Assembly (NCBI RefSeq): GCF_053078305.1
Contig: NZ_CP166879.1
Reading direction: 5' to 3' (one strand)
Length of the DNA: 64,000 bases
Shown here: positions 19,750 through 21,825 of the stretch, one piece after another
Numbering within the stretch: position 1 is the first letter of the stretch
Layout of the letters: every line of letters begins with the position of its first letter
Program-made: the position numbers and the translations under genes
Notes under the pieces: generated by a model
Seen by the model: the letters and a program-made list of their open reading frames with translations, nothing else
The model's database searches: none
What the model was told of the DNA's origin: nothing

Positions 19750-19935
19750 ATGCTGATTCTGACTCGTCGAGTTGGTGAGACCCTCATGATTGGGGATGAG
19801 GTCACCGTGACAGTTTTAGGGGTAAAGGGCAACCAGGTACGTATTGGCGTAAATGCCCCGAAGGAAGTTTCTGTTCACCGTGAAGAGATCTACCAGCGTA
19901 TCCAGGCTGAAAAATCCCAGCAGTCCAGTTACTAA
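19750..19935 (+). CDS. csrA: Carbon storage regulator CsrA
   Basis: 61-aa [64 protein letters not shown], identical to CsrA. Confidence 0.98.
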
Positions 19936-20250
19936 TCTTTCCGCGTCTCATCTTTATCGGTGAGACGCACCCTCAAAATTTCTCCTTCACTCTATAGTCT
20001 TTTCGCTTTACTCCCGTTCATTCAACTTAAGTCTCCATTTTTTTACATTACTGCTATCTGTCAGACCTCCATTTTTCTGTTGATAAAACACTCTTTTTGA
20101 CGTTTTTACAGACTAATTGAACGTGAAGTGTGCAAACGATAAAAGTGTGGGAAAAATTGTTTGACTTATAAGTCTCAGAAAGTAATATGTGCGCCACGCA
20201 GCGACGATGAGCGATAAACAAGTTCTTCGAAGCACTCGTAAGAGGCGTGT

Positions 20251-20343
20251 GGTGAGGTGGCCGAGAGGCTGAAGGCGCTCCCCTGCTAAGGGAGTATGCG
20301 GTCAAAAGCTGCATCCGGGGTTCGAATCCCCGCCTCACCGCCA
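20251..20343 (+). tRNA. serV: tRNA-Ser (anticodon GCU), long variable arm
   Basis: ggtgaggtggccgagaggctgaagg..ccgcctcaccgcca; anticodon loop cuGCUaa; about 93 nt with encoded CCA. Confidence 0.9.
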
Positions 20344-20346
20344 TTT

Positions 20347-20423
20347 GCATCCGTAGCTCAGCTGGATAGAGTACTCGGCTACGAACCGAGCGGTCGGAGG
20401 TTCGAATCCTCCCGGATGCACCA
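20347..20423 (+). tRNA. tRNA-Arg (anticodon ACG), copy 1
   Basis: gcatccgtagctcagctggatagagtactcggctACGaaccgagcggtcggaggttcgaatcctcccggatgcacca (77 nt). Confidence 0.92.
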
Positions 20424-20487
20424 TCTCTTACTTGATACGGCTTTAGTAGCGGTATCAAAAAATCTGCAGTAAAGTAAGTTTCCCGAT

Positions 20488-20564
20488 GCATCCGTAGCTC
20501 AGCTGGATAGAGTACTCGGCTACGAACCGAGCGGTCGGAGGTTCGAATCCTCCCGGATGCACCA
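20488..20564 (+). tRNA. tRNA-Arg (anticodon ACG), copy 2
   Basis: Identical 77-nt sequence to copy 1. Confidence 0.92.
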
Positions 20565-20626
20565 TCTCTTACTTGATATGGCTTTAGTAGCGGTATCAAT
20601 ATCAGCAGTAAAATAAATTTCCCGAT

Positions 20627-20703
20627 GCATCCGTAGCTCAGCTGGATAGAGTACTCGGCTACGAACCGAGCGGTCGGAGGTTCGAATCCTCCCGGATGCA
20701 CCA
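20627..20703 (+). tRNA. tRNA-Arg (anticodon ACG), copy 3
   Basis: Identical 77-nt sequence to copy 1. Confidence 0.92.
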
Positions 20704-20838
20704 TATTCTCCGAAATCTTCAGCAATGAAGATATCGAAGAGGTAGCGGAATTAACCGCAGGCACCAGGGAGGATAACGTTGCGCCAGCAACGGCCCGAAG
20801 GGCGAGCCGCAAGGCGAGTAATCCTCCCGGATGCACCA
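20704..20838 (+). repeat. About 135-bp spacer repeat ending in a tRNA-Arg 3' remnant (aatcctcccggatgcacca), unit 1
   Basis: Read from sequence: ttctccgaaatcttcagcaatgaagatatcgaagaggtagcggaattaaccgcaggcaccagg.. ends with the last 19 nt of tRNA-Arg. Confidence 0.7.
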
Positions 20839-20901
20839 TCTCTTACTTGATATGGCTTTAGTAGCGATATCAATATCAGCAGTAAAATAAATTTTCCCGA
20901 T

Positions 20902-20978
20902 GCATCCGTAGCTCAGCTGGATAGAGTACTCGGCTACGAACCGAGCGGTCGGAGGTTCGAATCCTCCCGGATGCACCA
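20902..20978 (+). tRNA. tRNA-Arg (anticodon ACG), copy 4
   Basis: Identical 77-nt sequence to copy 1. Confidence 0.92.
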
Positions 20979-21113
20979 TATTCTCCGAAATCTTCAGCAA
21001 TGAAGATATCGAAGAGGTAGCGGAATTAACCGCAGGCACCAGGAAGGATAACGTTGCTTTAGCAACGGCCCGAAGGGCGAACGCCAGTGAGTCATCCTCC
21101 CGGATGCACCATC
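20979..21113 (+). repeat. About 135-bp spacer repeat ending in a tRNA-Arg 3' remnant, unit 2 (diverged copy of 20704-20838)
   Basis: Same unit with a few substitutions; ends catcctcccggatgcacca. Confidence 0.7.
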
Positions 21114-21258
21114 TTCTCCAAAAAATTTCCTTCAAAAATATCTCATTTCTAAATAACTACTTTATCCATTTCCTGAATTTTCTTCTCCTTCGCCATCAGC
21201 GACAAAATCAAGCAATTACGCTAAAGTAGCGTCATATTTTTCGACTTGCGAGAAGACC

Positions 21259-21825
21259 ATGTACGAGCGTTATGCAGGTTTAATTTTTGATATGGATGGC
21301 ACAATCCTGGATACGGAGCCTACGCACCGTAAAGCGTGGCGCGAAGTATTAGGGCACTACGGTCTTCAGTACGATGTTCAGGCGATGATTGCGCTTAATG
21401 GATCGCCCACCTGGCGTATTGCTCAGGCAATTATTGAGCTGAATCAGGCCGATCTCGACCCGCATGCGTTAGCGCGTGAAAAAACAGAAGCAGTAAGAAG
21501 TATGCTGCTGGATAGTGTCGAGCCGCTTCCTCTTGTTGAAGTGGTGAAAAGTTGGCATGGTCGTCGCCCAATGGCTGTAGGAACGGGGAGTGAAAGCGCC
21601 ATCGCTGAGGCATTGCTGGCGCACCTGGGATTACGCCGTTATTTTGACGCCGTCGTCGCTGCCGATCACGTCAAACACCATAAACCCGCGCCAGACACAT
21701 TTTTGTTGTGCGCGCAGCGTATGGGCGTGCAACCGACGCAGTGTGTGGTCTTTGAAGATGCCGATTTCGGTATTCAGGCGGCCCGTGCAGCAGGCATGGA
21801 CGCTGTGGATGTTCGCTTGCTGTGA
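21259..21825 (+). CDS. yqaB: HAD-family sugar phosphatase (fructose-1-phosphate phosphatase YqaB)
   Basis: 188-aa ORF; HAD motif I LIFDMDGTILDTE. Confidence 0.9.
   Translation: MYERYAGLIFDMDGTILDTEPTHRKAWREVLGHYGLQYDVQAMIALNGSPTWRIAQAIIELNQADLDPHALAREKTEAVRSMLLDSVEPLPLVEVVKSWHGRRPMAVGTGSESAIAEALLAHLGLRRYFDAVVAADHVKHHKPAPDTFLLCAQRMGVQPTQCVVFEDADFGIQAARAAGMDAVDVRLL

Follow-up and report, generated by a model that had tools for sequence, protein, structure and literature searches.

Repeated spacers in an Escherichia coli tRNA-Arg array as members of the tRNA-linked repeat family, with the copied tRNA end as the suggested strand of a conserved helix

tRNA-linked repeats (TLRs) are a family of enterobacterial sequences whose hallmark is a terminal 18-19 bp identical to the upstream tRNA's or rRNA's 3′ end; K-12 carries 22 of them at ten loci, the first seen in tyrT in 1978 and the family catalogued by Rudd in 1999 (PMC8144298). 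Those of the arg locus in K-12 bear the EcoGene names raQ, raZ and raV (PMC8144298 supplement). At both tyrT and rrnB, the entire unit between the repeated 3′ ends accumulates, as RtT in the first case and as the 173-nt RrB in the second (PMC8144298, PMC3318445). RrB begins at an RNase E site located 3 nt past 5S rRNA and ends 3 nt beyond the repeated 18 nt, and the authors ascribed the role of the repeat at rrnB to the recognition or recruitment of RNase E (PMC8144298).

We analysed a window of 64,000 nt (contig NZ_CP166879.1 of assembly GCF_053078305.1), in which the region 19900-21500 is the csrA/serV/tRNA-Arg array/yqaB locus of E. coli and is 100% identical to that of strain PS10-3. The locus lies directly 3′ of csrA. 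ARAGORN called a tRNA-Ser(GCT), the serV equivalent, as the first gene of the array (20251-20343), followed by four tRNA-Arg(ACG) genes of one identical sequence at 20347-20423, 20488-20564, 20627-20703 and 20902-20978, all on the plus strand, in agreement with the first-pass annotation of this DNA. A short spacer comes after each of copies 1 and 2, 64 nt long in the first case (20424-20487) and 62 nt long in the second (20565-20626). Copies 3 and 4 are followed, from the base next to their CCA and on the same strand, by two longer units: unit 1, of 135 nt, at 20704-20838 and unit 2, of 133 nt, at 20979-21111. The 63 nt that separate unit 1 from copy 4 (20839-20901, plus strand) are homologous to the spacers after copies 1 and 2 and 97% identical to the short spacer found 3′ of these complete tRNA copies, so the long spacer consists of a TLR plus an ordinary short spacer. 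This identity had been missed on first reading.

Both long spacers had been described as carrying a repeat of roughly 135 bp that ends in the last 19 nt of tRNA-Arg, with a few bases differing between the copies. The repeat is present, at the two lengths given above, and the copies are equal at 125 of 135 aligned columns (92.6%), the differences amounting to eight mismatches and two gap columns. Every one of these is confined to the 3′ half, and the leading 65 nt are identical. The length of 19 nt holds for unit 1, the end of which (20820-20838) is AATCCTCCCGGATGCACCA, the tRNA-Arg 3′ end with its CCA. The remnant of unit 2 (21094-21111) likewise includes the CCA and is 18 nt long, because the base before it is C rather than A; it stops at 21111, 2 nt short of the end previously assigned to the feature (21113), the location of which was otherwise accurate. 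The sequence ATCCTCCCGGATGCACCA occurs six times in the window, four times in tRNAs and twice in the remnants, with no occurrence expected from 100 shuffles. Neither ARAGORN nor the Rfam tRNA model called the remnant-containing units as complete tRNAs, only the five complete tRNAs being called, which leaves the earlier description of partial copies standing. As no tRNA finder called the units, we rejected their identity as complete tRNAs or pseudo-tRNAs.

The observation is therefore correct and the feature is already known, as the two units belong to the long-known TLR (RtT-like) family of enterobacteria. Each unit lies directly 3′ of a tRNA gene, in the same orientation and the same operon, and each ends in the terminal identity that defines the family (19 nt for the first and 18 nt for the second). 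Homologous units follow argV, argZ and argQ in K-12 MG1655 and are 93-96% identical to those of the window; identity reaches 95.6% between unit 1 and raZ and 93.2% between unit 2 and raQ, a match that rests on orthologous locus and sequence, with the names taken from the supplement of PMC8144298. It is virtually certain that the two units are TLRs, one raZ-like and the other raQ-like, within an E. coli tRNA operon of the serV-argVYZQ kind. For this identity taken jointly with processing of the Arg units by enzymes that act on tRNA ends, we estimate a probability of about 0.75. The end copied in both units is that of tRNA-Arg, which sets them apart from the 5S-linked TLR small RNAs RrA, RrB and RrF. 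The units should accordingly be annotated as raZ-like and raQ-like TLRs, not as pseudo-tRNAs or assembly artefacts. We also observed that the RefSeq annotation of K-12 MG1655 omits the units of the arg locus.

Membership in the Rfam family RtT (RF00391) was assessed separately. The model aligned over its full length to both units, but unit 1 scored 26.9-34.8 bits and unit 2 scored 22.0 bits, both short of the curated gathering score (45 bits). At this threshold, membership is thus rejected, and because the threshold was tested we label the units TLRs and RtT-like rather than members of Rfam RtT. In the alignment to the Rfam model, the core agrees almost base for base over model positions 46-130. 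The same model gave 133-137 bits for tyrT units and, among long-form units, 94.5 bits for a Pro-linked, 79.7 bits for a Lys-linked and 70.8 bits for a Yersinia Arg-linked unit. This last unit, from Yersinia nurmii, passes the gathering score and also has 66.6 bits with R1, a model that we built from short-class TLRs. R1 gave 103.7 bits for unit 1 and 92.6 bits for unit 2, and recovered tyrT units at 29-30 bits (E about 3e-5). The Rfam threshold overlooks the short form, and Rfam at present covers the long form only. RtT is absent from the current version of the CoCoNuT preprint, and the mobilome and pseudouridine preprints contain nothing specific on the Arg units.

We scanned one genome per species for the 18-mer GCAACGRCCCGRAGGGYG from the TLR core, CGTTGC-loop-GCAACGGCCCGAAGGGCG (CGUUGC-loop-GCAACGGCCCGAAGGGCG in RNA). 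The scan returned at least 120 loci, with chance matches in high-GC coding DNA filtered out through a required upstream hairpin half. At least 50 distinct units have the core at a distance of 38-113 nt behind a gene for tRNA-Tyr, Arg(ACG), Lys, Gln or Pro, with the terminal 16-19 nt of the unit's own upstream tRNA following 14-21 nt past the core. In 5S-linked units, the same core is followed by the 5S 3′ end. Hosts among the matches listed include numerous Enterobacterales, such as Enterobacter, Citrobacter, Klebsiella, Pantoea, Erwinia, Hafnia, Yersinia and Brenneria, and the core is also present, again among the matches listed, in Photobacterium, Marinobacterium, Amphritea, Stenotrophomonas and Pseudomonas.

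The layout of the window, Ser-Arg-Arg-Arg-TLR-Arg-TLR, recurs in Enterobacter cloacae, in Hafnia paralvei and in the GTDB representative of E. coli, indicating that the arrangement is old and not the accident of one strain. In Brenneria and Phytobacter, every Arg gene is followed by a TLR. The core also occurs away from its usual setting: in Pectobacterium, it is found in tandem within a 3′ UTR with no tRNA nearby, so a tRNA-like end is not obligatory for the core, and in Stenotrophomonas, it lies inside other palindromes. Long-form TLRs of other taxa additionally contain the 5′ half of the tRNA T-arm (GGTTCGA).

Both units fold stably, with minimum free energies of -60.5 kcal/mol for unit 1 (z -6.9) and -47.5 kcal/mol for unit 2 (z -4.5); the antisense strand of the units folds equally well. 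The predicted fold consists of two 5′ hairpins, which in unit 1 occupy 20707-20740 and 20745-20758, and then a long closing helix around three small hairpins. The 5′ strand of this helix in unit 1 is GCACC-A-GGGAGGAT (20761-20774). Read as RNA, GCACC-A-GGGAGGAU pairs with AUCCUCCC-GG-A-UGC, the latter being the copied 3′ strands of the T-stem and the acceptor stem, and the ACCA stays free; the copied 18-19 nt comprise the T-stem 3′ strand, the acceptor 3′ strand, the discriminator base and the CCA. Enclosed by the helix are the two core hairpins, CGUUGC-loop-GCAACG and GCCC-GAA-GGGC, and a variable third. In unit 1, these lie at 20777-20792 (CGTTGC-GCCA-GCAACG), 20793-20803 (GCCC-GAA-GGGC) and 20806-20815 (GCC-GCAA-GGC). 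The core hairpins of unit 2 lie at 21052-21067 and 21068-21078, and its closing-stem 5′ strand (21036-21049) reads GGAAGG, which introduces an A-C mismatch that weakens the stem. The closing helix is predicted to be contiguous and, as we read the sequence, is reminiscent of a minihelix, the stack that acceptor and T stems form in a tRNA, with the core replacing the T-loop.

The upstream partner strand changes with tRNA identity. Units linked to tRNA-Tyr have the 5′ partner GGGGAAGGAU and the copied 3′ end AUCCUUCCCC, those linked to tRNA-Gln have CGGCAGGAU and AUCCUGCCG, those linked to tRNA-Lys have CGUG-A-AGGAU and AUCCU-G-CACG, and the Arg-linked units of Hafnia have GGGAAGAU and AUCUUCCU. 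In this last case, a change in the tRNA T-stem from CCUCC to CUUCC is answered in the partner by a change from GGAGG to GGAAG. Across 12 short-form sequences, 91.9% of cells were paired, compared with 26-51% when the 3′ partners were slid. Among 31 distinct sequences, in an alignment that was fitted to the model and so leans towards structure, double-sided changes were found in 13 of 26 pairs; the closing stem accounts for 10 (of its 13 pairs) and the third hairpin for the other 3 (of its 3). RNAalifold, applied to full-length Arg units in a MAFFT alignment that was not fitted to the model, arrived at the same fold, with compensatory pairs at 12 of 37, the 5′ hairpins included.

Duplex energies point in the same direction with less resolution. 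The cognate duplex of partner and suffix is more stable than the non-cognate mean in 47 of 50 units, counted among the listed matches and over units that are not independent; the energies of cognate and best non-cognate duplexes overlap, the best non-cognate suffix is often equally good, and the Wilcoxon P value therefore says little by itself. The two core hairpins are nearly invariant, to which the search pattern itself contributes by ascertainment. Collectively, these results indicate that the closing helix is kept by compensatory changes and that the remnant is one of its strands. The G-U and A-C counts came to 16 and 27 in the first of two alignments and to 12 and 6 in the second, and these strand counts, together with the equal folding of the antisense strand, mean that the conserved structure could act in DNA or on the opposite strand.

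The position of the units bears on whether they are transcribed. The sole promoter-like site on the plus strand in 19900-21400 is a consensus match, TTGACT-16-TAATAT, upstream of serV (20161-20188), in a number equal to the shuffle expectation. A consensus scan also found a terminator-like hairpin, ACGCTAAAGTAGCGT, with a T-run at 21218-21242 on the plus strand, 107 nt past unit 2 and just 5′ of the start of the yqaB ORF (21259-21825). The tRNA operon probably ends at this hairpin, and unit 2 would then belong to the 3′ trailer. Unit 1 is flanked on both sides by genes of a single operon and no promoter-like site intervenes, so that copy 4 can be made only by read-through of the unit, which on this sequence evidence must be transcribed. 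Unit 1 would thus be a transcribed structured spacer and unit 2 a structured 3′ trailer.

By analogy with the characterized relatives, a route for the release of the units can be proposed. As the 3′ end of a unit mimics that of a tRNA, it may be set by the enzymes that act after tRNA CCA ends: RNase E would cut a few nucleotides downstream of the unit, and exonucleolytic trimming would follow. The 5′ end of the unit would be the cut that frees the tRNA ahead of it, and the by-product would be a discrete RNA of about 135 nt, as is known for RtT and RrB. Because the imitation of a tRNA 3′ end is the ground for expecting excision by tRNA end-maturation enzymes, we regard excision of the Arg units as RNAs of about 135 nt by these enzymes as an evenly balanced proposition. 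The first-pass annotation had raised the idea that the remnants could be processed into tRNA-derived fragments. The same analogy favours a modified form of it, in which the whole unit would become a discrete RNA and the 19-nt remnant alone would not.

A more speculative reading goes beyond processing. Selection may have made the TLR module a mimic of a tRNA's upper half, with an acceptor/T-stem helix, a free ACCA and a near-invariant core of three hairpins in place of the T-loop, and the module may have a real role; we consider this a tentative possibility, with the odds against it. As judged from sequence, the module appears to be attached to at least six tRNA species and to 5S rRNA, throughout the Enterobacterales and reaching the Vibrionaceae and Oceanospirillales. 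Such a mimic might engage or titrate either the tRNA-end machinery (RNase P, RNase E, 3′ exonucleases, CCA-adding enzyme or poly(A) polymerase) or some core-recognizing factor. If this were true, TLRs would be neither processing by-products nor selfish DNA. Nothing here overturns existing knowledge. The closing helix that covaries with its cognate tRNA and the natural range of one to four copies in E. coli strains could make TLR function more tractable, because nature supplies isogenic-like variants and the helix offers a well-defined target for mutation.

That range emerged when we compared the array across 14 E. coli genomes sampled across the BLAST ranking. These contain two to five tRNA-Arg genes and one to four TLRs in at least eight distinct architectures, and the presence or absence of a TLR is bounded exactly by the 18-19-bp repeats. 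Spacers between tRNA genes fall into classes of 62-64 nt (no TLR), 196-198 nt (a TLR plus the short spacer) and 102 nt (the TLR 5′ hairpin fused to the short spacer). The tail from the last tRNA to yqaB is 280 nt with a TLR present, 210 nt after an internal deletion between two GCACCA microrepeats and 147 nt with no TLR. Only 284 of 5,426 complete genomes align colinearly to the window array over at least 80% of its length, a count of colinearity in which BLAST joins repeated pieces into one place.

The window units are like raV, raZ and raQ of K-12 in locus, orientation, unit length and 18-19-nt identity to the tRNA end. They differ in that the window strain lacks a unit at the raV position, having short spacers after copies 1 and 2 instead, and in that GCCA and TTTA, the variants of the hairpin loop, have traded places. 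This swap, together with the identical 5′ 65 nt of the two window units, fits exchange between copies. Recombination in the DNA is driven by the identical tRNA genes together with the direct repeats of 18-19 bp; it adds or removes whole tRNA-plus-spacer units and precisely deletes or restores TLRs.

The exactness of these presence/absence boundaries also recalls mobile DNA. The core could be a selfish repeat, either a miniature repeated or mobile element or what is left of an integrase-type element, that sits at the T-loop-to-CCA segment of a tRNA or at the corresponding segment of 5S and duplicates 18-19 bp, in which case the hairpins would matter in single-stranded DNA rather than in RNA; we consider both parts of this explanation unlikely. 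Integrases of the T-loop class duplicate the T-loop-to-CCA segment of a tRNA, and C-GAA-G is an unusually stable DNA mini-hairpin. Presence or absence exactly between direct repeats resembles a target duplication or attL/attR, a single core stands behind many different tRNAs, and the tandem cores of Pectobacterium and those in other palindromes of Stenotrophomonas lie off tRNAs; nor are the G-U versus A-C counts specific to RNA. However, the units have no accompanying transposase or integrase, and the partner strand covaries with the type of tRNA, whereas a fixed mobile sequence would not bring such a partner with it. Precise loss is explained equally well by recombination between direct repeats. 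An interrupted tRNA-Tyr-like gene in Citrobacter and Phytobacter, which we considered as a candidate T-loop insertion, is more simply explained by a deletion between two GGTTCGA segments, one in the tRNA T-loop and one in the TLR. Integrases do leave attL/attR duplications of the T-loop-to-3′-end segment of a tRNA around their insert, and these are likewise direct repeats flanking an inserted segment; a TLR differs in that its insert is only about 116 bp, without an integrase, and in its tandem arrays and tRNA-covarying structure.

Alternatively, the near-invariance of the core across genera, which suggests recognition by a factor, could mean that the released Arg TLR RNA acts in trans by binding a protein or other RNAs, as RrA, RrB and RrF do or as 3′ETS-leuZ does in sponging small RNAs. 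Although csrA lies directly upstream, which may be coincidence, and the 5S-linked relatives bind both Hfq and CsrA in vitro, all 19 TLRs of tRNA operons have a predicted CsrA-binding score below 0.01 (PMC8144298). A function and phenotype claimed earlier for RtT have been retracted, and a K-12 strain with all 22 TLRs deleted has been built and is listed in the supplement of the same study (PMC8144298). As TLR copies also come and go freely from strain to strain, whatever function one copy has is dispensable, and a trans-acting regulatory role for the Arg units seems decidedly unlikely.

The first-pass annotation had taken the repeat for a footprint of unequal recombination or partial duplication. 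This stands as far as the array is concerned, which is reshaped by recombination, with its two to five genes, one to four units and repeat-bounded insertions and deletions. It does not extend to the unit itself, which belongs to a conserved family with a common core, an old layout and compensatory changes, and is not a mere scar. In its strict form, this explanation would make the units leftovers of unequal crossing-over or partial tRNA duplication with no selected sequence or structure. The highly recombinogenic array, with its several spacer classes and GCACCA microrepeat deletions, is what it would expect, and the GGTTCGA of long-form TLRs makes an ancient partial duplication plausible as the ultimate origin of the family. 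However, the body of the E. coli Arg unit, about 116 nt, is not tRNA sequence, its core recurs in units that follow five further RNA species and in further bacterial families, the layout is kept from E. coli to Hafnia, and the helices are maintained by compensatory changes. We therefore regard purely passive scars as very improbable. It is barely credible that a unit encodes an arginine-rich peptide analogous to Tpr of the tyrT repeat, and we rejected this coding potential: the 23-codon frame of unit 1 (20779-20850, TTG start) reads RQQRPEGRAARR and resembles the Tpr stretch RRQRPEGRSARS because the nucleotide core is shared, but it has no ATG, and the loop variant TTTA creates an in-frame TAG stop in unit 2 and in K-12 raV and raZ, where the ORF list has no equivalent.

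With the units placed among the TLRs, and their processing by tRNA-end enzymes proposed, they can be set beside three characterized RNAs. 3′ETS-leuZ (mentioned in PMC8144298) is likewise a by-product of tRNA-operon processing that persists after the release of the tRNA; it pairs with small RNAs, whereas the Arg units have no known or predicted targets of this kind. RrA, RrB and RrF, which are linked to 5S and lie between the rrn terminators T1 and T2, have the same core hairpins, followed by a copy of the terminal 18 nt of the upstream RNA, and a discrete RNA bounded by the repeats has been shown experimentally (PMC8144298). They differ from the Arg units in that the copied end is that of 5S rRNA, and in their GGA motifs and their binding of Hfq and CsrA in vitro (PMC8144298). 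The third is RtT RNA itself (RF00391; rttR of the tyrT-tyrV operon). The Arg units are a short form of it, without the GGUUCGA hairpin, which corresponds to the T-arm 5′ half, and without the CUCGAGCG-n-AGCGAG hairpin, and they have two unrelated 5′ hairpins instead. Beyond these, RtT and the Arg units share the core AACGUUGC-loop-GCAACGRCCCGAAGGGYGA, a third variable hairpin, the junction GAGUMAUCC and a closing stem in which one strand is the copied 3′ end of the tRNA.

The tRNA-linked repeat (TLR) core, a pair of near-invariant hairpins, also occurs beyond tRNA and rRNA operons, as a locus from Pectobacterium zantedeschiae (L101) reveals. There, three 73-nt units bearing the core lie in tandem on the minus strand (approximately 988-1285), each including AACGTTGC-GCA-GCAACGGCCCGAAGGGTG and a hairpin, GGCGGACA..TCCGCC. 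These units sit in a protein gene's 3' untranslated region, ahead of a terminator, and ARAGORN found no tRNA at the locus; the core is therefore not confined to tRNA and rRNA operons. The tandem units had no Rfam match. A further site of the core, recorded alongside this one, is at 9687-9767 of L099.

Both core hairpins were also found without a linked tRNA at two Stenotrophomonas loci (L006, 10730-10767; L035, 3879-3945), where they are nested amid other palindromes, namely GGGAATCGC..GCGATTCCC and CATGCCATGGATGGCATG. The match of these loci to R1, a model built from the short-form TLR class, was limited to positions 21-60.

Within E. coli arrays, deletion derivatives of TLRs were found in the spacer between tRNA-Arg copies 3 and 4 (L124, L126, L127 and L129) and in the tail of L126. 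In the 102-nt spacer derivative, the 5' hairpin is all that is left of the TLR and is joined to a short spacer, and the 210-nt tail derivative has lost the core and the tRNA remnant between two GCACCA microrepeats. The three short spacers of the window (20424-20487, 20565-20626 and 20839-20901) are 76-97% alike, and each has a 7-bp inverted repeat of its own, TTGATAY ... RTATCAA.

Citrobacter werkmanii (L007), Citrobacter sp. FP75 (L028) and Phytobacter massiliensis (L121) each encode an interrupted tRNA-Tyr-like sequence that is almost full length, with an anticodon that is now GCA. Its T-loop, GGTTCGA, passes directly into the TLR core, and the acceptor 3' strand is missing. The simplest explanation of this arrangement is a deletion that joined the tRNA T-loop to the GGTTCGA of the TLR itself, which would most simply have made the gene at the tyrT position a pseudogene.

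A 261-codon open reading frame on the minus strand (window 20054-20839), antisense to serV, three tRNA-Arg genes and TLR 1 (the unit after tRNA-Arg copy 3), was rejected as a gene, being a mechanical artefact of repeated tRNA sequence. The tRNA-Arg(TCG) that ARAGORN called on the minus strand of an Enterobacter cloacae locus (L016, 3210-3282), antisense to the first tRNA-Arg(ACG), is probably a false, complementary-strand call.

Elsewhere, the window encodes tmRNA (ssrA; 62793-63155, minus strand), with the tag peptide ANDENYALAA. ARAGORN labelled the plus-strand tRNA at 54895-54969 as tRNA-Met(CAT), a label that is probably wrong because the sequence is nearly identical to E. coli tRNA-Ile2 (ileX/ileY type), which is read as Ile once modified with lysidine.
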